Source of the DNA: Pedobacter sp. | GTDB lineage: Bacteria; Desulfobacterota; Desulfuromonadia; Desulfuromonadales; Syntrophotaleaceae | Direction: 5' to 3' | Length of the DNA stretch: 64,000 nucleotides | NCBI GenBank assembly: GCA_050253415.1 | Contig: JBFWJC010000001.1 | Coordinates: 1,448,679-1,512,678 of the forward strand | Shown here: piece by piece, positions 28,185 through 60,407 of the stretch | Layout: each line of letters starts with the position of its first letter | Numbering within the stretch: the first letter of the stretch is position 1 | Program-made: the position numbers and the translations under genes | Notes under the pieces: generated by a model | Databases searched by the model: none | Told to the model about the DNA's origin: nothing | What the model saw: only the letters and a program-made list of their open reading frames with translations

Positions 28185-30149
28185 TTACCTATTTGTTCCG
28201 ATAGTGAGCCGGATCAGTCGTTGGTTAAAGCAATGGCGATCTTTAACATGGCAGGCCGTGTCGTCCATTTCCATGGCAGATAACACCAATCGGTAGAGGT
28301 ACTGTTTTTCTACCGGGGCGTAGACAATATGGCCGGTGACCGCCGTGGCGGTTTTGTCTGCCGTGATGCACACCCGCTTATGGTTGTCTCCAAGCTCTAC
28401 CGTATCGGAGGTGATTCCCAAGGCGTTGTTGGACGACACCAGCGTCGAAACAGGCGTCAAGTGGTTGGCTGGTTCGCCATTGAGGGGGAACGTCTCCGCC
28501 AGATCTCCGCCGTTATGAGTACGGTAAATTAGCTGTTCGGTTCGAAACGCTTCGGGATTAAGGGTGATATGTCCCAGGCGCAAGGTTCCGATCGGGCAGG
28601 AGGGCCACTGAAACAGATAGCTGATTTCCATGCGGGCATCGCTGGCCATCATGCGTATGGATTTGGTAACCGGGCCAAGCGACGTTTGAATGTCGGCACT
28701 TATCAGCAGGTCATCGTTATGGACCGTCAACTCCGGTTTTACCGCCGTAAGGTCGGTAATTTTATGCTGGCCGGGCACTTCGAGGACGAAGTGACCCGTG
28801 TAGTAGTCCATGCCGTACTGGATATCGTCAAAATAGCCGTGAGGCAGCGTTTTGAGCAAGGGCAGGGGGGAAAGATTCTTGTCCCACCAGCCATCAATGG
28901 CCAGACCGCGACGCAGGTTAAGGCGCAGGCGCTGCTCGGGTGTTTCGATGTCGAGAAAAGGTCCCTCGTTTTTTATCTTGAACTTATCCGGTATCGTGCC
29001 GGAGGAGTGGGCATTGCATGACGCCGTGGGGGATATCATGCGTTGTTCCAATCGGGCAAGACGGGTTTGCATGGTTTGCCAACGCTTGGTGGTGATATGG
29101 GTACGATAATCACTGCTCCACAGATGACATAGCTCTTTCCAGTCTTGGTCGCTGCAATCAGAGTTGTCGGACATGGCTTTGTACAGGCGCCAGCAGGCGG
29201 TGTTGAGAGCCATATCATCCCGGCCGGTCAGTCCCCAACGGACCACGTTGTATTTGGCCTGTTTTTTTACCGGTATCGGTTGGGCCGCTGTTTCAAGGCG
29301 CAACCGATTGCCGGCCCCGGGAATTTCCATAAAGTCGAGAACCTGCCGGGGGCCGATCAGGGAAAATCGATGGTCGGCCTTGATGGCCTTATAGAGACGG
29401 GCAATGCGTATCCATTCGCTTTCTTTGCCGGGCTTTGCTTCGGTAAGGAAGCGACCGGGACGAAAGTCGAAAATTTCCGCGTCGTTGCCGTACAGGGAAA
29501 AAGTACGCGGATCACCGTTCTGGTGGGACAAAAGGAAATCGAGGTATTCCGGAAGTTCCATTTCTCCATGGGTATAGCGCTGGAACTTCTGAAACGGAAT
29601 CGATTTATTCCAGATCAATGGCAAGGCCGTGTCGTCGGGCCCCAGGGCAAGCTGGGGCAGGTAGCGCAAATCAGGGTCCCATTCGGGATGGTTGCTGCCC
29701 GGATTCTCCCATTCCATGATGATGGCGCGATATCCGGCCTGCTGGTAGATCGGTACCAATCCTGCCGCGTAGGCTTGTTCGTTGACCAGAGCCAAATCCG
29801 GACGAAAGCCCAAAATGTTGTCATAGACCTGCAGGCCGAGGCGTTGGTTGGCGTGATTGACCGCTGCGGGCACCAGCGGACCGATGATCTGCGCATAGCC
29901 GCTGCCGATAAACTCCGCCGGGCCATGTTGGCACAATGACCGCAACTCAGCTACCCATGCGGGATCAATGGACGCCACCGCTTCAAGGGTGTAGCCCGAA
30001 GCTTCGATGCCGACAGGCAGTTGCTGCTCAGCGATCAATCGCAGCAGCGGCCAGTAACACTGGCGAATGACCTCCGGGCGCTGATCCTCCTCTATGGAAG
30101 AAAACATCAGATTGAGGTGAAAAATGGAATAAAGGCTGAGCCGGTTCAT
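28185..30149 (-). CDS. Glycoside hydrolase family 57-like protein
   Basis: FHLNL N-terminal strand, CYWPLL, SGYTLE, EFIGSGYAQII.PL, NEQAY and DAEIF resemble GH57 conserved regions. Confidence 0.7.
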   Translation of the reverse strand: MNRLSLYSIFHLNLMFSSIEEDQRPEVIRQCYWPLLRLIAEQQLPVGIEASGYTLEAVASIDPAWVAELRSLCQHGPAEFIGSGYAQIIGPLVPAAVNHANQRLGLQVYDNILGFRPDLALVNEQAYAAGLVPIYQQAGYRAIIMEWENPGSNHPEWDPDLRYLPQLALGPDDTALPLIWNKSIPFQKFQRYTHGEMELPEYLDFLLSHQNGDPRTFSLYGNDAEIFDFRPGRFLTEAKPGKESEWIRIARLYKAIKADHRFSLIGPRQVLDFMEIPGAGNRLRLETAAQPIPVKKQAKYNVVRWGLTGRDDMALNTACWRLYKAMSDNSDCSDQDWKELCHLWSSDYRTHITTKRWQTMQTRLARLEQRMISPTASCNAHSSGTIPDKFKIKNEGPFLDIETPEQRLRLNLRRGLAIDGWWDKNLSPLPLLKTLPHGYFDDIQYGMDYYTGHFVLEVPGQHKITDLTAVKPELTVHNDDLLISADIQTSLGPVTKSIRMMASDARMEISYLFQWPSCPIGTLRLGHITLNPEAFRTEQLIYRTHNGGDLAETFPLNGEPANHLTPVSTLVSSNNALGITSDTVELGDNHKRVCITADKTATAVTGHIVYAPVEKQYLYRLVLSAMEMDDTACHVKDRHCFNQRLIRLTIGTNR

Positions 30150-31090
30150 GGGGTTTCTCCCAGGCGATCACCGGGAATCAGTCCGGCTTGGCTGGCGGTC
30201 TCTTCCACATCGTCGTCCCATTGCAGACGGGTCAGCAACACCGCCCCATCACCGCATGCCACCAGCACGCCGTGGGGGAGGATTTCAAGAACGGTACCGG
30301 GGGCAGCGGTCCGGGTATCGAACGATTCGCGGCACGCCCAGATGAAAAATTTGCGGTCGCCGGCAAAGCTGAATGCGCCGGGATAAGGGTGTGCCAATGC
30401 CCGTACCCAATCGTATAGTTGCCGTTTTGGTAATGACCAGTCGATAACGCCATCTTCCGGGCGACGGCGTGGCCAGACCGTTGCCTTAGCGTCATCCTGC
30501 GGGATGCGCGGTGGCTGTCCACAAGCCAGCAGTGGTAGGCTTTCCACCAGCAGCCTGGCAGCTACTTCGTCGGTGCGTGCGCCAAGGATGGCGGCGGTAT
30601 CCTCGTAGTGAACCGGTACCATCGCCTGACTCAGCAGTTCGCCGGTGTCGGCCTCGGCATCGCACCAGAAAAGGCTGACGCCGGTCTGCTGCAACCCCTT
30701 GATCAAGGTCCAGGGGATGGGCGCCCGGCCCCGCCCCTCGGGGAGCATGGTGGGGTGCATGCCGATAAAACCGAGCTCCGGCACGGCAAGCAGCGCCTCT
30801 CCCACCAATTGGGACACGCCGATCACCATTCCGACATCGGGTTGGCATGCTTTCGACCAGCTCAGGATCTCCGGATCGTGCAGCGACGTAAAGGGGCGCG
30901 CGTTAAGATGGTAGTCCTGAATCAGGTCGTCGAAGGTACTGTGTGCCACTGTAATCCCGGCTTTGGATTCGTCCAGATACAGCACTCCGGTGATATTCGC
31001 GCCCGCCTCAAGCAATGCTTGCAGGCACCGGTGCCCGACAATGCGGGCCCCGACGTAAAGGATGCGCGGATGGTTGCCTGCAGGGGTCAT
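30146..31090 (-). CDS. Fmt-like formyltransferase (probable sugar N-formyltransferase)
   Basis: HPTMLPEGRGRAP, ADTG, DGVIDW, RALAHPYPGAF. Confidence 0.88.
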   Translation of the reverse strand: MTPAGNHPRILYVGARIVGHRCLQALLEAGANITGVLYLDESKAGITVAHSTFDDLIQDYHLNARPFTSLHDPEILSWSKACQPDVGMVIGVSQLVGEALLAVPELGFIGMHPTMLPEGRGRAPIPWTLIKGLQQTGVSLFWCDAEADTGELLSQAMVPVHYEDTAAILGARTDEVAARLLVESLPLLACGQPPRIPQDDAKATVWPRRRPEDGVIDWSLPKRQLYDWVRALAHPYPGAFSFAGDRKFFIWACRESFDTRTAAPGTVLEILPHGVLVACGDGAVLLTRLQWDDDVEETASQAGLIPGDRLGETP

Positions 31091-31764
31091 GGCAGAATCT
31101 CGCGCAGCAACATAAAGGGTTCGGCCGCCTCGAGGCCAACCTGGCTGCCCCAGGCTCTGGCCCGTGCTTCCAGTGAGGGCAGGGAACGGGCGTGCGGGAA
31201 CGGGCGCAGTTCCCCCTGGTAGGCCGACATGGCTTCCAGCTTTTTGGTCATCACGTTTGCGATGTCCAGAAAAACATTCGGCACAAACGGCAAGGCAGGA
31301 TCGCCCCAGCCGGTGGCAGAGGGCACTTCCATGGCCAGGACCCGTCGTACTGTACTCCCTGGCAGCGGGCGGCAGGCGGTAAGGGTGGCCATGGCTGTAC
31401 GCTGATGATCGATGTTCAGATCTCCGGGATGGTGGGTGTAGACGATAGCTGGCTGGACGTCATCGATAACCGACTCGATGGCTTTTACGATGTCGAGCAG
31501 GTCCACCCTGTCGAACCGGTTATCGGGAAAATCAAAAAGGCGCAGATCGGTAACGCCGAGAGCGGCGGCCGCCTGACTAGCCTCGCTTCGCAATTGCGAC
31601 AACGCCTGTTGATCCAGGGCTTCAGGGGTCTCGAGTCGTGATGACAAACCGCTGCCCAGAATAAGAATTGTTACCGTATCGTTATCCTGAGTGTGGCGGG
31701 CCATGGCTCCGCCGGCGCCGAGGACTTCATCATCGGGGTGGGCGACGATTACCAGCACATTCAT
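31087..31764 (-). CDS. PIG-L/LmbE family N-deacetylase
   Basis: AHPDDE and H..GD...DH motifs. Confidence 0.93.
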   Translation of the reverse strand: MNVLVIVAHPDDEVLGAGGAMARHTQDNDTVTILILGSGLSSRLETPEALDQQALSQLRSEASQAAAALGVTDLRLFDFPDNRFDRVDLLDIVKAIESVIDDVQPAIVYTHHPGDLNIDHQRTAMATLTACRPLPGSTVRRVLAMEVPSATGWGDPALPFVPNVFLDIANVMTKKLEAMSAYQGELRPFPHARSLPSLEARARAWGSQVGLEAAEPFMLLREILP

Positions 31765-32996
31765 ACCGCCTCCGTTTTTACCTGAATCGCCTGCACGGCG
31801 GTTTCAGCTCGCTGGGCCGCCTGTTCCCGGTCTTCGGCCACGGCGATAACCAGTCCGGCGGAGGCATTGGAGTCGGTTGGCGGTCGAACGATGTCGCCGG
31901 GTTGTACGGCCAGGCGTACCATGGTCACGCCGGGCAGGTTGCGGGCTTCTTGTTCCCCCTCGATGGCTGTGACACGGCCCGGAGTTGGAAAGATCAGACG
32001 CAAGGCCACTCCACGATCGAAACGGGGCTGCAATGCGGCAGGGTCGACTGGCAGTCCGAGGGACAGGCGGATCACCGCCAGGACAAGATCGACCCCGACA
32101 TTGAGAGGGATCTCATGGGTACAGAACCAGCCGCCGGAAAGACGCGCTGCCAACTCGATAACGTAGGGTTTGCCATCGCTGAAGACCATATCCCCCTTGA
32201 CCACTCCGCACGTCACGCCGAGGCTGCGTGCTGCCTGCTGAACCAGGTCGCGGACCGCCTGGCGCGCCCGGGTGGGCAGATGACTCGGCATGGTGCCGCC
32301 ATTTTCGATAAAATTGGGGGCGTAGCGGTCGATGTATTCATAATTGCGATCGGCAAATCCCGGGGTGTGACAGGCACCGTCCAGAACGATGCTTTCGGTA
32401 CTGATCTGCGGGCCGGGCAGATAACGTTCCACCATCACCCGGCCACTCGGTGATTGAATCAGAGCCCGCTGGTAGGCAGCGGCCAAATCCGCCTCGGGTG
32501 TCAAGCGTTGCACGCCACGACCGCCACGGCTGTCGACCGGCTTGAGTACCAGCGGAAGGCCGTTTTCCTCGGCGAGTTGCTGCAGGTGCCGGGCCGATTC
32601 GACGGCGCTGAACCATGGGATAGCCACGCCATCGTCGGCAAATTTCTGCTTCATGGCGAGCTTATCCATGGCGCGGGCAGCCACTTCGACAGGAATGCCG
32701 GGCAAACCGAGTTCGGCTGCCACCGAAGCGACGGTCAACGGCACGTCGGTGGCCAGGCACATGACGCCATCGATCTGGCGCACCTCGCGATGATAACACT
32801 TGGCTGCATCAAGGGTGGCTGCGACATCGTAGGTGCTGGCTACCAGTCGGCCATGCGCTGCCAGCATGCCGGGGGCCTCCGGATTCATATCGCTGACCAC
32901 CACGTGCAAGCCAAGATCGCGCGCTTTTTCGATGCCCGGCAGGGCTTCCATGCCGCCTCCGATAAACAGCAACGTTTTCCCTGCGTATTCAGACAA
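31761..32996 (-). CDS. ATP-grasp ligase (L-amino acid ligase-like)
   Basis: DKLAMK, VLKPVDSRGGRGV, VERYLPG, KGD, IELAARLSGG; TTG start overlapping the SDR stop. Confidence 0.88.
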   Translation of the reverse strand: MSEYAGKTLLFIGGGMEALPGIEKARDLGLHVVVSDMNPEAPGMLAAHGRLVASTYDVAATLDAAKCYHREVRQIDGVMCLATDVPLTVASVAAELGLPGIPVEVAARAMDKLAMKQKFADDGVAIPWFSAVESARHLQQLAEENGLPLVLKPVDSRGGRGVQRLTPEADLAAAYQRALIQSPSGRVMVERYLPGPQISTESIVLDGACHTPGFADRNYEYIDRYAPNFIENGGTMPSHLPTRARQAVRDLVQQAARSLGVTCGVVKGDMVFSDGKPYVIELAARLSGGWFCTHEIPLNVGVDLVLAVIRLSLGLPVDPAALQPRFDRGVALRLIFPTPGRVTAIEGEQEARNLPGVTMVRLAVQPGDIVRPPTDSNASAGLVIAVAEDREQAAQRAETAVQAIQVKTEAV

Positions 32997-33738
32997 AGTA
33001 CATCCCCCCGTTAAGGTTAAGCGTCTGGCCGGTGACGTAAGCTGCTTCATCTGAAGCCAGCCATGCCACGGCGGCGGCGATTTCTTCCGTTGTTCCGAGA
33101 CGTCCGGAGGGAATGCCAGCGACCTTTGCCTTGCCGGCCTCCGAAGTCAATTCCGCGGCTGTCATATCTGTAGACACCAATCCCGGAGATACCGCATTGG
33201 ATGTAATGCCGGCGTGGGAGTAGAGTTTTGCCAGGGAGCGGGTGAGATTGATCAATCCGGCCTTAGCCGCAGCGTAATGCACCTGGTTCATGCCGCCCCA
33301 CTGGCCGCCTATGGATACCAGGTTAATGATGCGTCCCCAACCGGCGTTGAGCATGTCCGGCAGCACCTCCTGTGCCAGGGCAAAGGGGCCGCGCAAGTTG
33401 GTGCCCAGCATCCGGTCCCAGTCTTCGTCACTGAGTTCCAAAAACGGTTTTTCCTGGGCAATGGCGCCGTTATTGACAAGAATCGCCGTGGATCCGTTAA
33501 AACGTTCACGAGTTTGTTGCAACGCCTGGCGAACCGATTCACGATCCCCGGCATCGACGCGAACGGCCAGCGCGTCAGGAAATTCAGCCGCCAGTTTTTG
33601 TGCGCCTTGCGGATGAGCACAAAAGCCTGCTGCAACCGGATGGCCATCGCACAGAAATCGCCTGGCAATGGCGTTGCCGATGCCGCGACTGGCTCCGGTG
33701 ACAAAAACGACGCGCTTGTTTTTTGGCATGTCGGCCAT
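32989..33738 (-). CDS. SDR oxidoreductase (FabG-like)
   Basis: TGASRGIG, NNG, YAAAK. Confidence 0.9.
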   Translation of the reverse strand: MADMPKNKRVVFVTGASRGIGNAIARRFLCDGHPVAAGFCAHPQGAQKLAAEFPDALAVRVDAGDRESVRQALQQTRERFNGSTAILVNNGAIAQEKPFLELSDEDWDRMLGTNLRGPFALAQEVLPDMLNAGWGRIINLVSIGGQWGGMNQVHYAAAKAGLINLTRSLAKLYSHAGITSNAVSPGLVSTDMTAAELTSEAGKAKVAGIPSGRLGTTEEIAAAVAWLASDEAAYVTGQTLNLNGGMYFV

Positions 33739-33808
33739 GGAAATTCCCCCTGAAAATAGCGTCGGCTACTCTACCATTTACCTGGTAACCGGTCAAAAGT
33801 TCCGATGG

Positions 33809-35503
33809 TCAGCGATACCACATATTATCCAGGGTTTGTCCTCCCAGAAGCATCGGAGAAACGGGAGCGTCGTGTTGAATACGGGCATGCAGCAAGGCTG
33901 GGCCGGGATCCCCAAGGAAAGCATCAACCACGGATGGGTCGAAACTTTCCAGTTGGTAGGCGGCAATTCCGTAAGCCTCGGCGATGGCGCGGAAATCGGG
34001 ATTGCGGAAATCACCGGTGACCGGGTCGTCGGTAAAAGTGATGCGCTGAAACTGGGAGACGATACCCAGTCGATTGTTGTCCAGCAGCACGATCTTGATC
34101 GGCAGGTCCAATTCACGGGCCAGCGCCAGTTCCTGAATGTTCAGCTGAAAGGAGCCATCGCCGTCGACGCACAGCACCAACTGTTGCGGTTGCACGTGGG
34201 CCGCTCCCAGCGCCACCGGCAGGGCATACCCCATGGTGCCGTGCCCCGCGGAGGTCAGTAACCGTTTGCGGGGATAATCGAAAGAAAAGTAGCGCGCCGC
34301 CCATTGCTGATGAGAACCGACCCCGGTGACTACGGTGGTCGCTTGCTGTTTGGTTGCCTGGTCGAGATAACGGAGCAGTTCGTCAGGCGCCACACCGGGC
34401 AATTCGCCATGATCGGCAAGCTGCAACGTGGTGCGGAATTCATCTGTCTGCTGCAGCCACTGGTGATGTTGGCAGGCAGGTGTATCAAAGGCCAGAAACC
34501 CTTTCAGAAAACTCTTCACGCAGCAGTTTGCGGCAATAATCTTACTCAGTCGGGAGTGTTGCAGTTCGGCCGCCTCGAGGTCGACCTGGAAGACTTTCTT
34601 CCCGGCAAAGACATCCAGTTCGGTGCCGGTCTGCCGCACATCCAGACGGCTGCCGAGGACAACGATACAATCGGCTTCAAACAGGGTGCGATTAGCCCAG
34701 GGCATGCCGGTATGGCCGATCCACCCGGCTGACAGCGGATGATCGCTGGGAAAAACCCCGATGCCGCGCATGCTGGAGACGACCGGTAATTGCCAACGCT
34801 GCGCCATGGCTCGGATTTCCTGGGCCGCATCAAGAGCACCACCCCCGACCAGCAGCAGCGGGCGCTCTGCGTCTCTTAGCGCGTCCTTCACGCTCTGTAA
34901 AAATTCGGTTGAGCAAGGTGTGCCCGGCGTGGCCCCGGAGTCCAATTCGGCGTCCAGGCTGCTGGCGAAATCTTGACACAAGGACTCCTCGATCAGGCTC
35001 ATCTGCACGTTCATGGGCAGGTCGATCACCACCGGACCACGTCTTCCATCGAGAGACAGTCGGACACCATCGATAAGAGCCTGTCGGAGCTCCTCGATAG
35101 TCTGGGGCTGCCAGACCCCTTTACTGATAGGGGCGACCATCTGCGGGGTCGGTACTTCCTGAAAGCCACGTTGACGCAGTTCCCGGGCGCGGCCGAGGTC
35201 GCGGGTGCCCACCTGGCCGGTCAAGACGATCAGTGGCACGCTGTCATAAAAGGCATCCGCGACGCAGGTAATGAGGTTGGTGGCGCCGGGGCCGCTGGTT
35301 ACAGCGACAAAGGCGGGGCCATTGTCTGATGCTGCATCGGCGATAGCCATGTAACCGGCTCCCTGTTCGGCCTTGGTACAGATCAACGGGACGCCCGCGG
35401 CTTTGCATTCATGAAAGATCGGGGCAATGGTACCGCCGGGGTAGACATACAGGCTTTTGCCGAAATGTTTTATGACTGTCGCGATCAGTGCGGAAGCGTA
35501 CAT
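33809..35503 (-). CDS. ThDP-dependent enzyme, acetolactate synthase large subunit-like
   Basis: YPGG, EQGAG, TSGPGATN, FQE, GDGSFQLNIQEL...LDNN. Confidence 0.92.
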   Translation of the reverse strand: MYASALIATVIKHFGKSLYVYPGGTIAPIFHECKAAGVPLICTKAEQGAGYMAIADAASDNGPAFVAVTSGPGATNLITCVADAFYDSVPLIVLTGQVGTRDLGRARELRQRGFQEVPTPQMVAPISKGVWQPQTIEELRQALIDGVRLSLDGRRGPVVIDLPMNVQMSLIEESLCQDFASSLDAELDSGATPGTPCSTEFLQSVKDALRDAERPLLLVGGGALDAAQEIRAMAQRWQLPVVSSMRGIGVFPSDHPLSAGWIGHTGMPWANRTLFEADCIVVLGSRLDVRQTGTELDVFAGKKVFQVDLEAAELQHSRLSKIIAANCCVKSFLKGFLAFDTPACQHHQWLQQTDEFRTTLQLADHGELPGVAPDELLRYLDQATKQQATTVVTGVGSHQQWAARYFSFDYPRKRLLTSAGHGTMGYALPVALGAAHVQPQQLVLCVDGDGSFQLNIQELALARELDLPIKIVLLDNNRLGIVSQFQRITFTDDPVTGDFRNPDFRAIAEAYGIAAYQLESFDPSVVDAFLGDPGPALLHARIQHDAPVSPMLLGGQTLDNMWYR

Positions 35504-35545
35504 TGATTTTCCTTTGCTGTGCTGTCTATGGAGTTATTTGTCTAT

Positions 35546-35744: not shown

Positions 35745-36806
35745 TTAACTAATGGTCGAGGCTAAGGCCAATGAAAATGGCACGGAACCCTCCGGTAGAG
35801 GATAGGGAGGACCTGATGCGGGCGTCTCCGGCTGGTTTGCCATCCAGGTTTCCCGGAGGGTTTGAGGTGTCCAGGACGGTGCCGGGATAGCTCGTTCCAG
35901 AAACTTGTACATCGGTGTCTGGTCGACCTCCAGCCAGAACCCGCGAGCCAGTGCCAGATATTCTTCACACAGGCGCTTCTCGTTACGCCCCAGAACATCC
36001 ATAGCATAAAGTTTCAGACACGTCTGGGCCGCCCATTGCATAACCTGCGGTTTGAGGTCCTTTAAGTGAAAACCTTCTTGAGGAAGGTGGTAGTTGAGAA
36101 CCAGCATCTTTGTGAGGTAGATGGTCATCAACATCGTTTTGTCTTTTATGAACTGCGAGGTGTCCGATTGTTCATGTTGTCTGTACTGAACCAGGGGGGT
36201 ATGCAGATAACCAACGTCCCACCTCATGTTGAGCTGAAGCACGGCCATGACATCCGTATAGGAATAACCACCGATGGCTTTCATGCACTCGGTTCTTATG
36301 AGCATCTGAACCGCGACGGTATGCCATCCTACGAAATTGACGCGGGCTTCGGATAAGCCGGGTATGATGGCGCTGTCCGCATAGAATTGGCTTTTTCCGC
36401 TGACGTTGCCTTGTCCATCGATATATTCTTTTTCGGCCAAAACATAGCCTAAATCAGGGCGATGCGCAAAAACCTCCAGGGCCGTTTCCAGAAATGCTGG
36501 TTTAAGCCTGTCATCGGCATGTAAAAAAACGATGTACTGACCTCTGGCATGTTCCAGGCAACGGTTCCAGTTCTCTAAAGAAGAGACATGCTTGTCAAAG
36601 TTGAGAGCAATAATCCGGTCGTCCCGAATTTTCCAGGCGTCGATGATACAACGGGAGTTATCGGTAGATGCATTGTCGATGACAAGGATTTCGATGTCCC
36701 GGTAGGTTTGCGAAAGAGCGCTTTCAATGGCCTCCCCGATGTATGTCGCCGTATTGTAGTTGGGTATGGCGATGGTGACAACTGGGGAATGGCTGTGCTT
36801 ATTCAT
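35745..36806 (-). CDS. Glycosyltransferase family 2
   Basis: IPNYN, IDNASTD, FLHADD. Confidence 0.92.
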   Translation of the reverse strand: MNKHSHSPVVTIAIPNYNTATYIGEAIESALSQTYRDIEILVIDNASTDNSRCIIDAWKIRDDRIIALNFDKHVSSLENWNRCLEHARGQYIVFLHADDRLKPAFLETALEVFAHRPDLGYVLAEKEYIDGQGNVSGKSQFYADSAIIPGLSEARVNFVGWHTVAVQMLIRTECMKAIGGYSYTDVMAVLQLNMRWDVGYLHTPLVQYRQHEQSDTSQFIKDKTMLMTIYLTKMLVLNYHLPQEGFHLKDLKPQVMQWAAQTCLKLYAMDVLGRNEKRLCEEYLALARGFWLEVDQTPMYKFLERAIPAPSWTPQTLRETWMANQPETPASGPPYPLPEGSVPFSLALASTIS

Positions 36807-36835: not shown

Positions 36836-37840
36836 TCAAATACGTGACAGGATGTCACCGGAGCAGGAGTCAAGCTCATCCTCCAGCTTTGCCGATGTGT
36901 CCGGAGCTGTGCAATGTTTGCAAATTTCATTGGACATGCGCTTTTTCTCAAGATGCAACTTGAGGAAATTCAGATGCTTTTCTCCGTTCCAGATGGCAGG
37001 CAGCGAGGTGTCTTTAATGTTGCCCAGTCCGGCGGGGTCGGATTCCATGCAGCAGGGATAGACATCCCCGTTGGGCAGGACCGTGAGAGTATAGAAGCAT
37101 ATAGGGCAGACCATGCGGACATCATGGATGTTTCCCCAGAGATCAGTGGTGGAGGTGCTTTTTATCATGGAACTGTAATCAATTTCATGGAAGACCGGCA
37201 CGATTTTCTCAACAAACATCCGGTCACTGATGGGTTTAAATGTTTGATAGAAACGTTCTTCATCCCCGTTATCCAGAGCGACGTCAGGGATTTTCACATA
37301 CAGGTTGGCGTTTCCTTTGTTTTCATAATAAAAACGAATATTGTCAACCAACTCTTCAAAGTTGATCCTGTAATCGCAGATCTCGAAATATTTTTCCGAG
37401 CTCATGCCCTGAAGAGAGATGCGTAGGGTGTCGAGGCCCGCGTCAATCAATGCCAGGGAGCTTTCCCGGGTGAGAAGAGATCCGTTGGTGATAAATGCGA
37501 TTTCTTCTGCCACATCCAGTTTTTTCAAGTAGGCAACCATTTCAGGCAACCGCTTGTTGCACATCGGTTCGCCGACCCCGTAGAGAAACAGGGTCTTAAG
37601 CTTGGTTTTAAATTGTTTGATCTGTTGCGCAGCCTCCAGGAAAATTTCCCAGGACATGATTTCCGGGAAGAAGCCTTTTTGCGCCAACGCGGCTTTTCCA
37701 ATGGAGTGAATACAATATTTACATTTAAAATTGCAGACGGTGGCAACTGACAAAAAGACGGTGAACGGAGTGGCAAGAGGAACCGCTTCGTTGAGTTTGA
37801 TTCGTTCAAGTCCGTAGCTTGGTTTTATCTCGGATCCCAT
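36836..37840 (-). CDS. Radical SAM protein with SPASM/twitch domain
   Basis: CNFKCKYC; GEP; C-terminal CPIC...GDVYPCC...CKHC. Confidence 0.92.
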   Translation of the reverse strand: MGSEIKPSYGLERIKLNEAVPLATPFTVFLSVATVCNFKCKYCIHSIGKAALAQKGFFPEIMSWEIFLEAAQQIKQFKTKLKTLFLYGVGEPMCNKRLPEMVAYLKKLDVAEEIAFITNGSLLTRESSLALIDAGLDTLRISLQGMSSEKYFEICDYRINFEELVDNIRFYYENKGNANLYVKIPDVALDNGDEERFYQTFKPISDRMFVEKIVPVFHEIDYSSMIKSTSTTDLWGNIHDVRMVCPICFYTLTVLPNGDVYPCCMESDPAGLGNIKDTSLPAIWNGEKHLNFLKLHLEKKRMSNEICKHCTAPDTSAKLEDELDSCSGDILSRI

Positions 37841-43834: not shown

Positions 43835-44388
43835 GCCAACGATCCCTTCAGGAAAAAGGGGGATTGGAAGTCGCATAATGCCGGAAGCCCTGCGTCCCTT
43901 TCGGAGACGATGGGATTTTCGTCCGGCCAGGCGATTCCAGCCGAATTCCAGAGGATGCCGGTATCATGCTGGGGAGAGTACACTGTTGAGACCTTGTACA
44001 TCATGGTGGCCGAGGCGCTGAGAACGTAAAAACCGTGCGCAAGTCCCATCGGAATGTACAGCATGTTGGCGGTGTCCGCCGACAGTTCAAGAATCTGGTG
44101 CTTTTTGTAGCTGGGTGAATCTCGGCGCAAGTCCACGACAGCATCCAGTACGGTTCCCTCGACGCAGTAGACAAGCTTGGTGTGATCATGGGGAGGGGTT
44201 TGAAAGTGCAGTCCCCGCAAAACACCATGCGTTGAAACGGAAAAATATTCCTCTCGCCAATCGGTACACAATCCGTTTTTGGAAAAAGTCTCCGCATGAA
44301 AGGTCTTGGTGAACGAACCGCGATGATCTCCGATCATGTTCGGGAGGAGCTCAAAACATCCTGCGATGGCTGTTTGTTTGACGGTCAT
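43831..44388 (-). CDS. rfbC: RmlC/AscE-type NDP-4-keto-6-deoxyhexose epimerase
   Basis: D.RG.F, RGLHFQ, DLR..SP, AHGF; ATGA overlap with rfbH. Confidence 0.9.
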   Translation of the reverse strand: MTVKQTAIAGCFELLPNMIGDHRGSFTKTFHAETFSKNGLCTDWREEYFSVSTHGVLRGLHFQTPPHDHTKLVYCVEGTVLDAVVDLRRDSPSYKKHQILELSADTANMLYIPMGLAHGFYVLSASATMMYKVSTVYSPQHDTGILWNSAGIAWPDENPIVSERDAGLPALCDFQSPFFLKGSLA

Positions 44389-49464: not shown

Positions 49465-49512
49465 GGAATGCACCTGGTAATTGTCTGTGCTATATCTTGA
49501 AAAAACGGGTAA

Positions 49513-50736: not shown

Positions 50737-51818
50737 GGAGTCTCCTGTTGATGCGGATTGGTGTCAGCTTTTTGCTTCTGACTCCGGAGTCTATCAATAA
50801 TCTGAAGGGCAATACGCTGCGCGCCTTTGCCGTCCACGAGCTCACAGGCCTTTTGCATTTTTTTACGCAACCTGGGGGCGTTTAATAGTTGCGTGACTGC
50901 TTCTGCCACGTGGTTTTCCGATAGCTGGCGGTAATCGCCCAGAGATACAGCCATTCCGGCATCGGCAAGTGCTCCGGCGGAGTGAGCGTGATCCTGTGTC
51001 AGCCCCAAGAGTACGGCCGGTACATTGAGTGCTGCCAGTTCGTAAGCAGTGCCTCCAAAAGCTGCAACAGCCAGATCGGTACCGGCCATTAACGACGGCA
51101 TGTCGCTGACGTCACGTAGAAACTCAAACTTGTCTGGAAGGCTGGGGCGCAGTTGTTCCAGAGCCTGGTCATGTAAAAAAGCGCGACCCAGCACCACGCG
51201 GGCATAAAAGGGTTCCTTGACTTGGCATAAGGCCTTCAATGCCAACAAGGTCAAGCCTCCGGGGTCGCTGCCGCCCATGGTGACCAGAATCGAAGGAATC
51301 GGGTTTTGCGGTGGCGCCCGTCTAATGCTGAATTCGCGTCGTAACAGCAGATAGTCCCAGCCGATAAATGCCTGGCCGGTAAAGCGACTCCAATCCGCCT
51401 TGGTCATCTGGGGTACCGGCGGATAAAAAGCCAGGTCTGCTGCCTGGCGGCGATCGCTGGGATCGTCGATGACCGCTACGGTTAATCCATCGTTGCGCCA
51501 GCGGGACAAGGCCGAGGCGGGCAGTGTAGTCCGAATATCCAGAATCAGCCCTTTAAAGGAGTACTTCTCGACGAGAGAGTGGATCCATTGGGCTTCTTCG
51601 ATGTTGTCAGGTTTTGTGAAAACCGGGAAATTTGCCTGTTCAACCAAGGCCTCTGCCACACCTGTGCCGATTATGGCGAACCCGGGTTGCACGCCGTAAG
51701 AATCACGCAGTTCACACGCCAAAGCCAGACAGCGGACTATATGGCCCAAACCAAGTTGGGGGGAACCGTCGCACCGAATCAGGATTTGCAGGTGATTTTG
51801 GGTTGTTGGAATGCCCAT
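50733..51818 (-). CDS. pseG: PseG/SpsG UDP-sugar hydrolase
   Basis: R.DG...G.GH..RCLALA, MGGSDP, G.T.YE. Confidence 0.88.
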   Translation of the reverse strand: MGIPTTQNHLQILIRCDGSPQLGLGHIVRCLALACELRDSYGVQPGFAIIGTGVAEALVEQANFPVFTKPDNIEEAQWIHSLVEKYSFKGLILDIRTTLPASALSRWRNDGLTVAVIDDPSDRRQAADLAFYPPVPQMTKADWSRFTGQAFIGWDYLLLRREFSIRRAPPQNPIPSILVTMGGSDPGGLTLLALKALCQVKEPFYARVVLGRAFLHDQALEQLRPSLPDKFEFLRDVSDMPSLMAGTDLAVAAFGGTAYELAALNVPAVLLGLTQDHAHSAGALADAGMAVSLGDYRQLSENHVAEAVTQLLNAPRLRKKMQKACELVDGKGAQRIALQIIDRLRSQKQKADTNPHQQETP

Positions 51819-51828
51819 CAGACCGCCG

Positions 51829-52545
51829 TTATCGGTTTTGATTCTTCAAAAATTGCAAAGCTTCTTCCAGGGAAACGATGTGTCCAGGTTTGTATAAATG
51901 AGCATACAGGGTCCGGAAAAATTCCAGGTCAGCCGCGGTGTCGATGGACAGCTTATACTCCCCCATAAAGGCCGGGTCGATATCAAACGGTACGGTTTTA
52001 AGTTCATCCATGTGATCGTAAGCATAAGCCGTGACATGTTCGTAGGTCCGTGGATTGTCCGGCGCAACCGTACGCGACCATTCCAGCGCCCGGCGCGAGA
52101 TGGGTCCGGCTCCCTGGTAGGCGGAAGGTCCGTTGCATGTTGGACGGATACAATCCGCATCCTGTTCCATAATCGCAGCCGTGCTTTGATCCATGAATTC
52201 GGGATCGAACAGGGGGGCGTCACCGCAAATGCGTATGATGTAATCGGCGTCGGCATCGTCAATAGCGAGGAAAAATCTTTGCATGACGTTATCCTCGGAG
52301 CCGCGTACTACCTTCAAACCCATTTTTTGCGCCAGTTCAACCAACGGATCATCGATCGGCTGGTCCGTGGTGGCGAGGTAGACCGCCTGCGCGCAGCGTA
52401 TCTGCAAAGCCCGCGCAATAATGTGATACATAAGCGGTTGCCCCATAATAGGTTCGAGCATTTTCCCCGGCAGCCGACTTGATCCCATGCGGGCCTGAAT
52501 GATGGCGATAACTTTTTTTGATTTACTGATATTGTTACCTGTCAT
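51829..52545 (-). CDS. SpsF/PseF-type nonulosonate cytidylyltransferase
   Basis: IIQARMGSSRLPGK, RGSEDNV, RICGD.P, EHVT. Confidence 0.88.
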   Translation of the reverse strand: MTGNNISKSKKVIAIIQARMGSSRLPGKMLEPIMGQPLMYHIIARALQIRCAQAVYLATTDQPIDDPLVELAQKMGLKVVRGSEDNVMQRFFLAIDDADADYIIRICGDAPLFDPEFMDQSTAAIMEQDADCIRPTCNGPSAYQGAGPISRRALEWSRTVAPDNPRTYEHVTAYAYDHMDELKTVPFDIDPAFMGEYKLSIDTAADLEFFRTLYAHLYKPGHIVSLEEALQFLKNQNR

Positions 52546-53474
52546 TAATCTATTCCCCAGAATCGCGGGTCGATAAGTGTTTCTTCGGTTGCGGCCAGCT
52601 CGCATGCTTCGGCACATTGACCGGTCGATAACGGACCCTGTCCAGCTATGGCCAGAGCTGTATGCAGTTCCTGCAGCGATGAAACTCCGACAAGTACGGA
52701 GCTCAGAGCCTCCTCTGCCAGACAAAATCGCAGGGCCGCCTCGGGTAAAGTCAGGGCATGACCTTCCGCCCAGTCGGCCGCTGTTGCGGCAAGATTCTTG
52801 AGTTTGTCCAATCGCGCCGGGAGATGCTGGCGGCGCGAGGTAAGAACCCCTTTTAAAAAGACCGACCGCCCGAGTACGGCGATGCCACGCTGTTTGGCAG
52901 CGGGCAGAACCTTGTCCGCCATGCGCTGATCCAGAAGATTGTAGGCGATCTGCAAGGTGGCGATGTCCGGATGCGTCAACGATGCCATTGCCGCCTCTTC
53001 TCCATAGACGGAAGCACCGATAGCGCCGATCTTGCCCTGGTCGCGGGCTTGCATCAGGATTTCCATCAGCGGCGAATCGAACAATTGGCAGGCGGTTGCG
53101 TTATGAATCTGCACCAGGTCAAGCCGTTCGCGGCCCAGATTGCGCAGGCTGCGCTCCAGGCTTTGCAGCACCGCATCGGGGGAGATGGCATCCTCGCCGA
53201 AGGGGCCGATCTTTGTAGCGATATGCACTCCGGCGTGACCTGTGGCGCGCAGGGCTTTGCCTACGAAGACTTCGCTCTCACCGTAGGCCGGCGCCGTATC
53301 CAGAAGGTTGATTCCGTTTTCCAGCGCAGTGCGAATGATGGCCTCGGCCTCGGCGGTTTGAGGACGATTGGCTTTACCGGGGGCGCCGATGCCGTATTCC
53401 ATGCCCAATTCGACGGTGCCCAGGGTAATACGGGAAACGCGCAAATCGGCTTGCGTGATTTCATGGTATTCCAT
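52545..53474 (-). CDS. Aldo/keto reductase
   Basis: LGTVELGMEYG, DTAPAYG.SE, GASVY, RSVFLKG. Confidence 0.9.
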   Translation of the reverse strand: MEYHEITQADLRVSRITLGTVELGMEYGIGAPGKANRPQTAEAEAIIRTALENGINLLDTAPAYGESEVFVGKALRATGHAGVHIATKIGPFGEDAISPDAVLQSLERSLRNLGRERLDLVQIHNATACQLFDSPLMEILMQARDQGKIGAIGASVYGEEAAMASLTHPDIATLQIAYNLLDQRMADKVLPAAKQRGIAVLGRSVFLKGVLTSRRQHLPARLDKLKNLAATAADWAEGHALTLPEAALRFCLAEEALSSVLVGVSSLQELHTALAIAGQGPLSTGQCAEACELAATEETLIDPRFWGID

Positions 53475-53479
53475 GGCGG

Positions 53480-54280
53480 TTACCATGCCGTCCAGCCGCC
53501 GTCTACCACGAGATTCTGCCCGGTTACCCAAGCCGATGCGTCCGAGGCAAGGAACAGCACCGCTCCTTTGAGATCGTCGCTACCGGCCATGCGTCCCAAA
53601 GGGGTTTTGGCGACGTACTGACTGATGAATTGCTCATCCTGGTTGTTGAACAGGCCTCCGGGGGTCAGGCAGTTTACCCTGATTTTTGGTGCCCAGAAAG
53701 TTGCCAGGTAGCGCGTCATCTGGATCAGAGCCGCTTTGGTCATTCCATAGACCAATGGACTGTTGGTGCCGGTCGATCCGTAGATCCGCTGATCGGGTGC
53801 CACCATGCCGTAAATACTGGATAGGTTGATCATGACGCCGCCATCGTTTTCCAGCATGTGCGGAGCGGTTGCCCGTGATATCAGCATGGTGCCGGTAATG
53901 TTGACCGCCAGTACCTGATTCCAGTCCTTGAGAGAAACCGTTTCGAACGATTCAAAGTGATTGCTGCAAGCATTGTTGACCAGAATATCCAGGCGGCCCG
54001 CGTCAGAGATAAGGGTGTCGACAACGGAAGAAATGCTTTGTTCGCTTTCCAGGTCGAGGGCCAGGCCACGAACATCCAGCCCTTGACCACGCAGCTTTTC
54101 AGCGGTCTGCTGTACATGGGCAAGGTTGCGTGACGTGATGAAAACCGTTGCACCTGCTTCTGCCAGGGCCTGGACAGCTTGCGATCCGTACCCGTTGCCG
54201 GTCCCACCGGTAACCAGCGCAACCCGGCCTTTAAGGCAGAACAGATCCTGGGTGTTTCTGGCTTGTTGCATTTCAGGCAT
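53480..54280 (-). CDS. SDR oxidoreductase (PtmA-like, nonulosonate-cluster type)
   Basis: SSIYGMVAPD..IY, YGMTK, PGG, GQNLVVDGG. Confidence 0.88.
   Translation of the reverse strand: MPEMQQARNTQDLFCLKGRVALVTGGTGNGYGSQAVQALAEAGATVFITSRNLAHVQQTAEKLRGQGLDVRGLALDLESEQSISSVVDTLISDAGRLDILVNNACSNHFESFETVSLKDWNQVLAVNITGTMLISRATAPHMLENDGGVMINLSSIYGMVAPDQRIYGSTGTNSPLVYGMTKAALIQMTRYLATFWAPKIRVNCLTPGGLFNNQDEQFISQYVAKTPLGRMAGSDDLKGAVLFLASDASAWVTGQNLVVDGGWTAW

Positions 54281-55132: not shown

Positions 55133-55136
<4 letters not shown>
54273..55136 (-). CDS. pseI: Nonulosonic acid synthase (PseI/NeuB family), short form
   Basis: SEVSSNH, VKFQ, KIAS, STGM, LHCVSSYP, GWSDH, IEFH. Confidence 0.88.
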
Positions 55137-57336
<2,200 letters not shown>

Positions 57337-57379: not shown

Positions 57380-57396
57380 TGCAAAAAAAAAGCCAG
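57380..57396 (-). promoter_or_regulatory. Putative sigma54 promoter of the pse operon with a T9 spacer
   Basis: Minus strand CTGGC-TTTTTTTTT-GCA, exactly GG-N10-GC. Confidence 0.6.
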
Positions 57397-57899: not shown

Positions 57900-60407
57900 T
57901 CATGAACTCGGTGGATTGTTTGAGAGTTCAAGAGACTTTTGGGCCGCTTCGTTTTTCGGGTCTTGAGTAAGTATGTGCTGGAAAACTGTCTGGGCATATT
58001 CATGTTGTCCCAGTTGTTGGTAGAGTTGGCCTACTTTCAGTAAAACCATCAAATCTTCAGGGAACCGCTCCAGGTAATCGGCGTAGGCATCAAGAGCGGT
58101 TTTGGTCTGGCCGAGCATGTTTGCTAAATCCGCGTATTGCGCAAGATACATGGGGGAATGCCCGGTCAGGCATTCCAGGGCCAGAAGAGCGTTCTGGGGG
58201 TTGTTAAGTTCCAGGGAAAGAGAAGCGATGCGGCGTAATGCATCCTCTGCTACCCCTTCTGATGCAGATTCCAGAACGTTTTGATATTCTTCAAAAGCCT
58301 TGGCAAAATCATTTTCAAGTTCGGCCAGATAGGCTTCTGCCAGGTGGCAAACTGCTTTGTTGTTTTCCTCCGGCGATGCGACCAGTCCCTGGTGAATGCC
58401 TGTCAAGGCTGTCCGATCCCTGTTTTTGAAAAGAATTCGGAGCCTGTGACGGGCCATTTCCGGAGAGGCGCAGCCCTTGGTGCCCGATACAAGATATTCG
58501 GGATTATGTGCAAGGCTATTTTCGAAATCATTTTTGGCCTGGGACAGTTGGAGATCCATTGCATTTGGATTTTTGCCCTTATTATTGCCATGGCGACGGT
58601 GCCATATCAAGGCACGCCCTGTTTCCGCGTTAGCTCGCCAAGCGTTAACGAGTTGGGTCAAATCTGCCTGGGGATCTTCTTCTGACAGGCGCAATTCAAC
58701 CCTTGCAATAGAATTTTGGATAAACTGGAGCATTTGTGCGGCACTGTCTATGTAGGCCTGATAATAAATACGACCGGTTTCCTCTATCTGTTCATCACTC
58801 CACTCACGAGTGCTGTCAGGCCGGGAAATTTTTAGAAACTGGCGTAATCCCCCTTCTTTAATCAGGTTGGCGTAGGTCGCAATATGTGGTCTGCACAATG
58901 CTTTTTCAACCTTGTCCATGCGTATTTTGTACTTGTAATCCGCATGCATGCCATTTCGGCCAAACAGGCCATCGTTACATTTCAACCCTTCTTTGGCGAG
59001 CTTCTGTATTTTCAGGATGTTTTTTTCCGCAATCCGAAGTTTTTCCAGAACCTTTTTGAAATAATCTTTCCTGGTTTCAGCATTGTCTTCTGGAAGTGCT
59101 AGTCGAATTTTATCCCATGCAGGTTCGGCCAATGGTTCAAAATCTATATTTTCCAGGGGCGTATGTACAATGTTTGAAATCTTGGCGGCTAAAGGAGTCG
59201 GGTTAATTGTTTTGCAACCATTTTTCAATGCAAATTCTGCCAGGTTTCCCAACGAGGTAATGGCTTCAGCCATTGCCCTGGTAGTAAAGGTTCTGATCCC
59301 CTGGTTGGTTTCAATTTGTGCATCAAATTGATGGAACTGGGGGCCTGCCTGACGTTCGTAACTGCCCTTTGCATGCGAATAGCCTTCAGGACTGAAACAC
59401 AGGTCGACACCGGCCAGGATAATTTGGGCAAACCCCATTTGCATGGCGGTTGCAAAGGCGGCGTTGGTGACTGTGGGGCCTACGGCGTCGAGAAAGGTCT
59501 CTGTGGATGTTTCCTGCCATGGGAAACGATTGCCGATAAAAGCTGTCGGTCCCTGCCACTGGCTTAGAAGTTGAGGAACCACATGGAAGCTATTAACAAA
59601 CAGGGTGCTTTCTCCGAAAAAAAGCATCTCTTTGCTGACATCGAAGCTGGGTTGATGCGGATCGACGGAAAAGAAAATATCCGGAACCAGTTCAACTTCT
59701 TTAAGTCGACGGGCAATACGGGATACCGCCAACACCACCAATTGCTTCCGGTGTTTTTGTATCCAGGGAAGGTGGTCATCCAGGGAAGGACCGCCAGCTA
59801 AAAGCACAGCTGTTTTTCCGGGGAATAGATCTTTCAGGCAGACTGCTGAAAAACGGTTTTCCGCCAGGTTCTCGAGTTGGCGTTCAATAAAAGTATGGTT
59901 GCTTAACTGGACTTTGATTTGCCAGGCAAAGGAATCGATAAATTCCCTGGCGACCCAATACAATTCGGGGTAATCGGGTAAATAGGCATCGCCTGCGGCG
60001 AGTGATTTCCAGATGAGAATTTTTTCCGTGTAGAGGTAATTTTGAAATTCCAATTGGTCAGCTGTGTTCTTAAGTTGATCAATGGAAATACAGCTGATTT
60101 CTTCGGGCAGAGTATCCAGCAACCCCTCTTGTTTCAAACGGTTGATGACTTGGGGAAGTTCAATGAATACATAGCGGGATACGTCAGGAATGCTGGTTTT
60201 AATGATATGTCTGAGCAGTAGTCCCGAATCGGTGCCTACCACAATGTGCAGGGTTTTCTCTGCGAAAAGCGCCTCGCCAAAGTGCTTTTTATATTGGGCT
60301 GAAGCGCCGATACGGTTAAAAATTTCGCGATTAACCGGATACAGGTAGCGGTCTCCAAAATCGTTGGAGATGAACGGTCCCAGGTCAAACGTAGTAAGAT
60401 TGTCCAC
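57900..60407 (-). CDS. maf: Motility-associated factor (Maf/DUF115) flagellin glycosyltransferase with C-terminal TPRs
   Basis: NLAEN, AGGPSLD, SVDP, GPTVTN.A...A..MG...IILAGVDL motifs; TPR-like helical repeats. Confidence 0.88.
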   Translation of the reverse strand: MDNLTTFDLGPFISNDFGDRYLYPVNREIFNRIGASAQYKKHFGEALFAEKTLHIVVGTDSGLLLRHIIKTSIPDVSRYVFIELPQVINRLKQEGLLDTLPEEISCISIDQLKNTADQLEFQNYLYTEKILIWKSLAAGDAYLPDYPELYWVAREFIDSFAWQIKVQLSNHTFIERQLENLAENRFSAVCLKDLFPGKTAVLLAGGPSLDDHLPWIQKHRKQLVVLAVSRIARRLKEVELVPDIFFSVDPHQPSFDVSKEMLFFGESTLFVNSFHVVPQLLSQWQGPTAFIGNRFPWQETSTETFLDAVGPTVTNAAFATAMQMGFAQIILAGVDLCFSPEGYSHAKGSYERQAGPQFHQFDAQIETNQGIRTFTTRAMAEAITSLGNLAEFALKNGCKTINPTPLAAKISNIVHTPLENIDFEPLAEPAWDKIRLALPEDNAETRKDYFKKVLEKLRIAEKNILKIQKLAKEGLKCNDGLFGRNGMHADYKYKIRMDKVEKALCRPHIATYANLIKEGGLRQFLKISRPDSTREWSDEQIEETGRIYYQAYIDSAAQMLQFIQNSIARVELRLSEEDPQADLTQLVNAWRANAETGRALIWHRRHGNNKGKNPNAMDLQLSQAKNDFENSLAHNPEYLVSGTKGCASPEMARHRLRILFKNRDRTALTGIHQGLVASPEENNKAVCHLAEAYLAELENDFAKAFEEYQNVLESASEGVAEDALRRIASLSLELNNPQNALLALECLTGHSPMYLAQYADLANMLGQTKTALDAYADYLERFPEDLMVLLKVGQLYQQLGQHEYAQTVFQHILTQDPKNEAAQKSLELSNNPPSS

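Follow-up and report, generated by a model that had tools for sequence, protein, structure and literature searches.

A candidate flagellin glycosylation island that joins a Shewanella Sfm-type pseudaminic acid core to a CDP-sugar/radical SAM cassette

The 64,000-nucleotide stretch of Pedobacter sp. DNA analyzed here (the window) is part of contig JBFWJC010000001.1 (C1) in a 4.1-Mb, 100% complete genome (G000), and it holds a putative flagellin glycosylation island. Between fliW (60713-61192) and the two adjacent flagellin genes, which are the only ones in the genome, lie exactly 27 intact minus-strand open reading frames (ORFs), as a preliminary description of this DNA had claimed. The ORFs occupy approximately 31.1 of 32.2 kb, and 15 of the 26 junctions overlap, by 1 to 40 nucleotides. 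Pfam and NCBIfam scans also bore out the named genes for a cytidine diphosphate (CDP)-3,6-dideoxyhexose pathway, GT2 and GT4 glycosyltransferases (GTs), two methyltransferases (MT1 and MT2), and four radical S-adenosylmethionine (SAM) enzymes, and they found all of the thiamine diphosphate (ThDP), ATP-grasp, deacetylase, formyltransferase, and GH57-like genes. Two short-chain dehydrogenases/reductases (SDR1 and SDR2) and an aldo-keto reductase came in addition. All four radical SAM enzymes, two B12 binding and two of the SPASM/twitch type, carry CxxxCxxC. Oxygen sensitivity is a general trait of such enzymes, so the earlier emphasis on oxygen-sensitive chemistry adds nothing.

An assembly chimera was ruled out. 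Contigs from the runs X2, X3, and X4 covered 30, 29, and 30 of 30 bins across window positions 26001 to 46000, with no single piece spanning the whole (a fourth run, X21, amounted to 6 reads). Moreover, a genome of the same genus (G003) has 26 of the 27 genes in identical order, with only B12 radical SAM enzyme 1 missing. The genome has no Maf, NeuB, PseF-like, or PseG-like gene outside the island. The island proteins have no strong hydrophobic segment (maximum, 1.73), and the island encodes no flippase, polymerase, ligase, or membrane protein of the Wzx/Wzy type. Wzx and Wzy_C genes sit on other contigs (C4, C5, C7, C10, and C15), and the genome holds several further polysaccharide loci. Therefore, we rejected an O-antigen or capsule locus as an explanation of the whole island. 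Flagellin is the likely target because this is the sole Maf, the only flagellins adjoin it, their central regions are rich in Ser and Thr, export genes are absent, and a sigma-54-type motif is conserved.

The island has what is expected of a Maf-type system: a Maf (DUF115) gene, with nonulosonate synthase and CMP-activating genes beside flagellin. The preliminary description had named pseB, pseC, pseI, pseF, and pseG. This held for PseB and PseC, which scored above their curated cut-offs, but the NeuB (PseI), PseF, and PseG homologues fell below theirs (166 of 340, 34 of 206, and 135 of 154 bits, respectively). The 287-residue NeuB has no C-terminal extension when set against a 366-residue NeuB. 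Therefore, the canonical pathway to the diacetylated pseudaminic acid (Pse) Pse5Ac7Ac (PseBCHGIF) is represented by PseB and PseC, but not by PseH or by full-length PseI, PseF, and PseG equivalogs. The PseH profile TIGR03585 had no match at an E value of ≤0.001 in this complete genome. As a control, genome G034 has PseH above the cut-off inside its own island, along with a long NeuB and no ATP-grasp or GH57-like gene. The profile search took in the genomes of 46 of 80 GH57-like loci (see below), chosen mainly for visible Pse genes, and 9 further genomes. PseH was above the cut-off in only 1 of 54 genomes with a GH57-like gene, and 8 more had weak matches. A single-probe tblastn across the 80 loci (no match, but weak) was set aside in favor of this hidden Markov model search. 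Because PseH is missing so consistently, the ATP-grasp ligase probably acylates the Pse amine, and its replacement of PseH with a custom acyl group is a reasonably probable reading of these distributions.

Shewanella oneidensis provides a precedent. It has no PseH, and its flagellin glycan needs sfmABCDE, which encode a NeuB, an IlvB-like ThDP enzyme, a 3-oxoacyl reductase, a methyltransferase, and an ATP-grasp protein of 290, 581, 255, 395, and 412 residues, respectively (PMC3765264). The island counterparts, judged by gene family and length, have 287, 564, 249, 407, and 411 residues. Therefore, the ThDP and ATP-grasp genes, listed in the preliminary description among the additions to the Pse genes, are no novelty but gene types of the sfm operon, as is the SDR. 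In both organisms, these gene types share one maf/pseBC locus, Maf-1 has tetratricopeptide repeats (TPR), and the flagellins are small. The S. oneidensis Maf-1 has 822 residues with a C-terminal TPR, and its Maf-2 requires GlfM (bioRxiv 10.1101/2023.12.03.569772). Relatives of our genome have maf-2 with a GlfM-like ORF. At the position of a glfM-like remnant in our window, G001, G003, G005, and G006, all of the same genus, have a Maf-like ORF of 446 to 484 residues and an ORF of 92 to 110 residues, the latter with FR at positions 19 and 20 and DxxE at 74 to 77 (F24, R25, D77, and E80 in GlfM). The loss of maf-2 and glfM leaves a Maf-1-only system here. The island further differs from the Shewanella system in its recognizable PseF- and PseG-like proteins, SDR1, aldo-keto reductase, deacetylase/formyltransferase pair, GH57-like protein, and 12-gene cassette and in having a sigma-54-type rather than a FliA motif before the operon.

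The S. oneidensis glycan is 510 to 538 Da and has two units, a mono-acetyl Pse of 274 Da and a nitrogen-free C9H16O7 with up to two methyl groups (PMC3765264). The outer unit of 236 to 264 Da was unsolved as of 2013, and we found no later solution in the open-access literature. Loss of the ATP-grasp gene caused a smaller flagellin shift than did loss of the other four sfm genes (PMC3765264). In Treponema denticola, the flagellin FlaB carries Pse with a 2-methoxy-trihydroxyhexanoyl group (PMC13439194). This methylated polyhydroxy acyl group on a nonulosonic acid is the type of product that we propose here, a likeness at the level of the product. The computed mass of a Treponema-type acylated nonulosonate is 450.18 (274 + C7H12O5).

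Related genomes divide the island into two modules. A full-length Maf match was present in 11 of 41 genomes, including G000, and the ten others were examined in detail. In 8 of these 10, both ends of the fliW-fliC slot were visible with maf inside. G005 has the same frame with a different methyltransferase and radical SAM set. G006 retains maf-pseB-pseC-neuB-SDR1-aldo-keto reductase-pseF-pseG and ThDP-SDR2-ATP-grasp-deacetylase-formyltransferase-GH57-like, at 71 to 96% identity, without the CDP, GT, and radical SAM genes. G001 and G008 also keep the core without GT2, GT4, or CDP genes, and G008 is without radical SAM genes as well. RfbG was not found in any of G001, G006, G008, G023, and G052 (78 to 100% complete). 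Because relatives retain the core without 35745-49473, the island consists of an Sfm-type core and a separate, inserted sugar cassette, which is present in three of the six family members with this core. The preliminary description had the Pse derivative extended by the two GTs. However, because G001, G006, and G008 keep the core without either GT, the main decoration is probably independent of them.

Slot contents vary in other ways. G001 (L025:16617-19712) and G008 (L016:1649-4929) have a split transketolase and a polysaccharide pyruvyl-transferase-like gene in place of the acetolactate-synthase-like gene. In G023, from another family (L013:16455-19322 and L014:567-5383), the ATP-grasp/deacetylase/formyltransferase/GH57-like tail is preceded by phosphonate- or sulfonate-type genes, namely a split phosphonopyruvate/sulfopyruvate decarboxylase-like gene and an Fe-alcohol dehydrogenase, which hints that its flagellin bears a phosphonate or sulfonate group. 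The maf-fliC slot has an unrelated gene content in two genomes of the same genus, G004 (L004:6760-13275) and G002 (L027:6321-13077), where a long NeuB encoded on the other strand and several ORFs that match no Pfam family are among the genes. The slot content of G009 is also unrelated.

To follow the core more widely, we used the GH57-like gene, which had matches in 10 of the 151 genomes searched within the order. We took the best 80 of 95 stretches across many phyla, with up to 10 kb on each side. Many are incomplete, many belong to Alphaproteobacteria that are related to one another, and the three best come from close kin of the relatives examined above. By tblastn, ATP-grasp was in 72 of these loci, SDR2 in 54, PseG in 45, NeuB in 39, PseF in 38, PseC in 33, PseB in 31, and the deacetylase and formyltransferase in 6 each. 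Clustering placed a ThDP enzyme in 50 loci, of three unrelated types: a split transketolase (35), a DXS-like enzyme (5), both of these (4), or the acetolactate-synthase-like enzyme (6), which never occurred together with either of the others. SDR2 accompanied the ThDP enzyme in 48 of the 50, stood alone in 8, and neither was present in 22. Alphaproteobacterial versions of the core include a sulfotransferase-family gene (L057:4055-4888 and 12 similar loci), which suggests that their side chain is sulfated.

Alternative identities were weighed for two core proteins. The ThDP enzyme is not the housekeeping acetolactate synthase, of which there is a separate copy on contig C3 (32% identity). A PseF-like domain is fused to the ThDP enzyme in 8 of its best 120 homologues (P0088, P0090, P0093, P0100, P0105, P0108, P0112, and P0114). 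No ThDP orthologue was found at an E value of ≤1e-120 in 400 genomes of the phylum (with at most three candidates scored per genome) or in plasmids. The GH57-like protein matches PF03065 above the cut-off. E124 and D223 are invariant in 68 sequences and align to the TERV and DDGEKF motifs of 1k1w, which we take to be its catalytic acids. Its predicted fold (pLDDT, 94) matches the GH57 glucanotransferase 1k1x (E value, 5e-24; 13% identity), although GH38 mannosidases match it too. With the glycosidase acids invariant and a GH57/GH38 fold, a deacetylase is not favored.

The cassette comprises 12 genes, from B12 radical SAM enzyme 1 to GT2 (35745-49473). RfbF, RfbG, and RfbH all exceed their cut-offs, and RfbH aligns end to end with PDB entry 3bcx (E value, 1e-158), with the E1 motifs YPxHH, DxCDALG, RDCxC, and YDHKY retained. 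Therefore, their synthesis of a CDP-4-keto-3,6-dideoxyhexose is well supported by homology. With the RmlC-type epimerase and the reductase, these genes match the Yersinia CDP-3,6-dideoxyhexose pathway (DdhA/B/C and AscE/F). Compared with Yersinia, the island has no DdhD, and it has added twitch and B12 radical SAM enzymes. The GC content of B12 radical SAM enzyme 1 is 0.35, compared with approximately 0.54 across the contig. The enzyme has a C-terminal extension that bears two CxxC motifs and that the G005 form lacks. Its C-terminal domain has marginal likeness to MT1 (E value, 0.016). A recent insertion into this genome alone is not supported because the shorter G005 form is 71% identical.

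Twitch enzyme 1 marks the cassette elsewhere. C37, C41, and C44 and C245, C263, C308, and C311 are invariant in 60 sequences. Its best PDB matches by sequence, profile, and fold are BtrN, DesII, and BlsE of antibiotic sugar pathways, with BtrN first by profile and fold. They have a similar four-Cys auxiliary cluster, and identity in the fold alignments is 16 to 19%. The substrates of these enzymes are sugars or cyclitols. Unlike them, twitch enzyme 1 occurs in a CDP-sugar and GT4 cassette in surface-glycan loci. We examined the best 80 of 275 confirmed metagenome relatives. GT4 was on the same strand in 47 of the 54 loci with 1.5 kb downstream, and was directly the next gene in 30. RfbF or RfbG was in 24, and an epimerase in 31, of the 36 loci with 5 kb upstream. 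RfbH was in 10 of the 80 and NeuB in 5, and none had the ThDP enzyme or the GH57-like gene. Therefore, in metagenomes this BtrN-like enzyme and GT4 are a recurrent pair, usually with no flagellin nearby. These neighborhoods, with the nearest solved relatives, make it most likely that twitch enzyme 1 oxidizes or epimerizes a CDP-deoxysugar that GT4 transfers. Among 400 other genomes of the phylum, 6 had a GT4 match; one homologue (L193 in G454; 51% identity) has an in-frame TGA. Features of the locus are listed in Table 1.

Table 1. Features of the island and its borders, in window coordinates
Feature	Position	Strand	Evidence or remark
glfM-like gene remnant	60431..60531	-	tblastn and blastn; maf-2 and most of glfM deleted compared with G001, G003, G005, and G006
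Maf-1-type flagellin glycosyltransferase, 835 aa, DUF115/MptE-like, C-terminal TPR	57900..60407	-	PF01973, 138 bits; sole Maf of genome
Sigma-54-type -24/-12 motif (YTGGC-N7-TTGCW), 93 nt upstream of pseB	57380..57396	-	Predicted
PseB, UDP-GlcNAc 4,6-dehydratase (inverting)	56233..57303	-	TIGR03589, 530 bits (cut-off, 408)
PseC aminotransferase	55133..56272	-	TIGR03588, 465 bits (cut-off, 424)
Short NeuB (SfmA-like nonulosonate synthase), 287 aa	54273..55136	-	Sole NeuB of genome
SDR1, short-chain dehydrogenase	53480..54280	-	Family scan
Aldo-keto reductase	52545..53486	-	Family scan
PseF-like cytidylyltransferase	51829..52545	-	PF02348; under PseF cut-off
PseG-like UDP-sugar hydrolase	50733..51818	-	TIGR03590, 135 bits (cut-off, 154)
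MT1, methyltransferase, two CxxC motifs, SfmD-like length	49513..50736	-	Travels with core
B12-binding radical SAM enzyme 1, GC 0.35	47659..49473	-	Not in G003; shorter form in G005
RfbF/DdhA glucose-1-phosphate cytidylyltransferase	46836..47612	-	TIGR02623 above cut-off
RfbG/DdhB CDP-glucose 4,6-dehydratase	45730..46845	-	TIGR02622 above cut-off
RfbH/DdhC C3-dehydrase (E1)	44385..45740	-	NF011936 above cut-off
RmlC-family epimerase, putative AscE-like role	43831..44394	-	RmlC above cut-off
NAD-dependent epimerase/4-reductase, putative AscF-like role	42986..43834	-	Family scan
Twitch-type radical SAM enzyme 1, BtrN-like, portable-cassette marker	41900..42916	-	Four invariant auxiliary Cys
GT4-like glycosyltransferase, own subfamily	40581..41903	-	E-x7-E: second Glu invariant, first replaced
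MT2, methyltransferase, two CxxC motifs	39376..40584	-	Weak match to sugar 3-C-methyltransferase 5t64, E 7e-6
B12-binding radical SAM enzyme 2	37881..39299	-	Family scan
Twitch-type radical SAM enzyme 2	36836..37840	-	33% identity to twitch enzyme 1
GT2 glycosyltransferase	35745..36806	-	Family scan
ThDP carboligase, acetolactate-synthase-like (SfmB-like)	33809..35503	-	32% identity to separate copy on C3
SDR2, FabG-like reductase (SfmC-like)	32989..33738	-	Family scan
ATP-grasp ligase, L-amino-acid-ligase-like (SfmE-like), proposed PseH replacement	31761..32996	-	Closest solved structure is an L-amino acid ligase
PIG-L-family de-N-acetylase	31087..31764	-	Family scan; paired with formyltransferase in 6/80 GH57-like loci
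N-formyltransferase	30146..31090	-	Family scan
GH57-like retaining glycosidase/transglycosylase fold	28185..30149	-	E124 and D223 invariant
FliA (sigma-28)-type promoter motif of first flagellin	28004..28030	-	Kept in six-genome alignment; strict pattern in three
Flagellin 1, 280 aa, proposed acceptor	27026..27868	-	Family scan; 14 Ser/Thr in 55 central residues
Flagellin 2, 280 aa, proposed acceptor	25861..26703	-	Family scan; 13 Ser/Thr in 55 central residues

On balance, we favor a reading in which the two adjacent flagellins are O-glycosylated by the products of the island, an Sfm-type core into which a sugar cassette has been inserted. Homology indicates that PseB and PseC convert UDP-GlcNAc to a 4-amino-4,6-dideoxy-AltNAc nucleotide. 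The ThDP enzyme would add two carbons and SDR2 would reduce the product, with SDR1, the aldo-keto reductase, and MT1 making adjustments to yield a polyhydroxy acid. Without PseH, the ATP-grasp ligase would link this acid as an amide to the free amine (N7 of Pse). The GH57-like protein would most likely release the extended sugar from a glycosidic carrier before ligation, which is the weakest step. The PseG-like protein, short NeuB, and PseF-like protein would then lead to a CMP-Pse derivative, the deacetylase/formyltransferase pair might exchange the other N-acetyl for N-formyl, and Maf-1 would move the Pse unit onto Ser/Thr. In the cassette, RfbF, RfbG, and RfbH, followed by the epimerase and reductase, would make an ascarylose-like CDP-3,6-dideoxyhexose. 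The twitch enzymes would oxidize or epimerize this sugar, and the B12 radical SAM enzymes (putatively by C-methylation) and MT2 would methylate it. GT4 and GT2 would attach the product to the Pse unit. The parts of this reading differ in strength. Flagellin very probably carries a non-standard Pse, which supports the preliminary description of a Maf-dependent island with such a derivative and with enzyme products that are probably undescribed. That the cassette sugar also ends on flagellin is fairly probable.

Several observations weigh against this reading. PseH was above the cut-off in G006, on a different contig, and the PseH model may miss divergent acetyltransferases. The expected rate of PseH rests on one control, and many of the loci are kin. 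No DdhD-like ORF was found among the 27 ORFs of the island, to which the search was confined. Flagellin was within 10 kb in approximately 24 of the 80 GH57-like loci, and Maf in 6. In the 80 twitch loci, flagellin was in 3, two of them near-identical. Because both modules are mostly away from flagellin, they serve other glycans too. In S. oneidensis, an amide link was not assigned, and a glycosidic link would also account for the basic amine of the 274-Da unit and for the ease with which the outer unit is lost in source (PMC3765264).

A ThDP enzyme and an SDR in one locus with CDP-keto-sugar genes also match the YerE/YerF branching system of Yersinia, the chief alternative for the ThDP enzyme. 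They might act on the CDP-4-keto-3,6-dideoxyglucose of the cassette to make a C4-branched, yersiniose-type sugar that is moved by GT2. YerE/YerF and ErwE/ErwF employ exactly this acceptor and gene set (PMC9306805 and PMC12247030), and the order GT2-ThDP-SDR2 directly follows the cassette in G000, G003, and G005. However, a genetic tie between the ThDP enzyme and the CDP genes was not borne out, because the ThDP enzyme goes with the Pse core. The contiguous G006 island, which lacks CDP genes and GTs, encodes a ThDP enzyme with 87% identity, in a genome (84% complete) in which RfbG was not found. Loci L051, L068, L090, and L102 have the same ThDP type and no Rfb match. Split transketolases occupy the ThDP slot in G001 and G008, and some ThDP homologues are fused to PseF-like domains. 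For the 4-keto sugar, the cassette already has an epimerase and a reductase of its own, and none of the 80 cassette loci has this ThDP type. We consider branching quite improbable.

The cassette might instead have landed in a recombination hot spot and serve lipopolysaccharide, capsule, or another surface glycan, leaving flagellin with acylated Pse only. CDP-3,6-dideoxyhexoses are well known from O antigens, several further polysaccharide loci exist elsewhere in the genome, and cassette homologues are rarely beside flagellin (3 of 80) or Maf (none by tblastn and one weak edge match by blastp). Even so, the cassette is in midoperon with overlapping junctions, and its position is kept in G003 and G005 despite 48 to 95% divergence. 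It has two soluble GTs of its own and no export genes, and CDP-dideoxyhexose genes occur in other flagellin islands (PMC13317340 and PMC4875605). This makes a role elsewhere unlikely. Similarly unlikely, in our view, is glycosidic attachment of the extended sugar, with the GH57-like protein as a transglycosylase and the ATP-grasp ligase adding only a small acyl or amino acid group. The GH57-like protein does share the complete fold of a 4-alpha-glucanotransferase, with both of its catalytic acids, it is the most constant pathway partner even without a GT (G006 and G008), and the Shewanella outer unit is easily lost from an inner unit that resembles a free amine (PMC3765264). But glycosidic attachment explains less well why PseH is missing and why ATP-grasp is so constant (72 of 80 loci), and the Treponema precedent is an acyl group (PMC13439194).

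Regulatory features were also apparent. Sigma-54 drives flagellar genes in this order, and the sigma-54-type motif before pseB recurred at the same site in 6 of the 9 genomes compared, each of the six a member of this family; the genome has 88 matches in all. A sigma-54-like motif before the ThDP gene (35561) was dropped because it is not conserved in G003, G005, and G006, and a sigma-28-like match before pseB did not have the strict pattern in any of seven genomes. CsrA has a role in flagellin control. A conserved GGA-containing leader precedes the first flagellin (27869-27915, minus strand), fitting CsrA control by the upstream csrA (61132-61383)/fliW pair. Just downstream of fliS, positions 16613-23185 hold two GGDEF genes and one PilZ gene, which suggests local cyclic di-GMP control of motility. 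Further distal flagellar genes (fliD, flgD, flgE, flgK, and flgL), without a flagellin, form a second set on contig C2 (L199:7105-13417).

Variable flagellin glycosylation islands are common, and as a kind this one is ordinary. The preliminary description stated that they usually add a single nonulosonate, which understates their range. Aeromonas flagellins have Pse-linked penta- to heptasaccharides (PMC7874193; bioRxiv 10.1101/2024.05.20.594992), S. oneidensis has the two-unit glycan, and CDP-dideoxyhexose genes are already on record in flagellin islands of Clostridium butyricum (CDP-paratose genes; PMC13317340) and of enterobacteria (CDP-keto-sugar genes with formyl- and methyltransferases; PMC4875605). 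Aeromonas group II islands similarly have Maf and Pse genes with inserted GTs, and a Pse derivative links the longer chain. However, they differ in their many GTs, fatty acid genes, and common hexoses and N-acetylhexosamines, and the text of PMC7874193 contains none of the terms "radical SAM," "ATP-grasp," and "acetolactate." In the open-access literature, we came across no account of this island and none of radical SAM enzymes acting in flagellin glycosylation, although supplementary gene tables could hold such loci.

What the island adds is two independently traveling modules, a PseH-replacement pattern with exchangeable ThDP enzymes, and a CDP-sugar/twitch radical SAM/GT4 cassette. Tentatively, the core may be a cross-phylum, PseH-free branch of Pse biosynthesis, in which an ATP-grasp ligase, a GH57-like protein, and exchangeable ThDP enzymes hang sugar-derived acids on Pse. 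The cassette may represent a widely distributed pathway, with BtrN-like and B12 radical SAM enzymes reshaping a CDP-deoxysugar that a GT4 of its own then uses, and core and cassette together could place a radical-tailored, undescribed sugar on a protein glycan. The series of loci with the same core and acetolactate-synthase-like, transketolase, or phosphonate genes before ATP-grasp predicts which gene sets the side chain, and it makes the question of the Shewanella outer unit testable. The cassette, with its soluble proteins and clear limits, is a target in the search for new radical SAM chemistry on sugars: its twitch enzyme has a CDP-sugar substrate that can be predicted and a GT4 as partner, and it recurs in many uncultured microbes.

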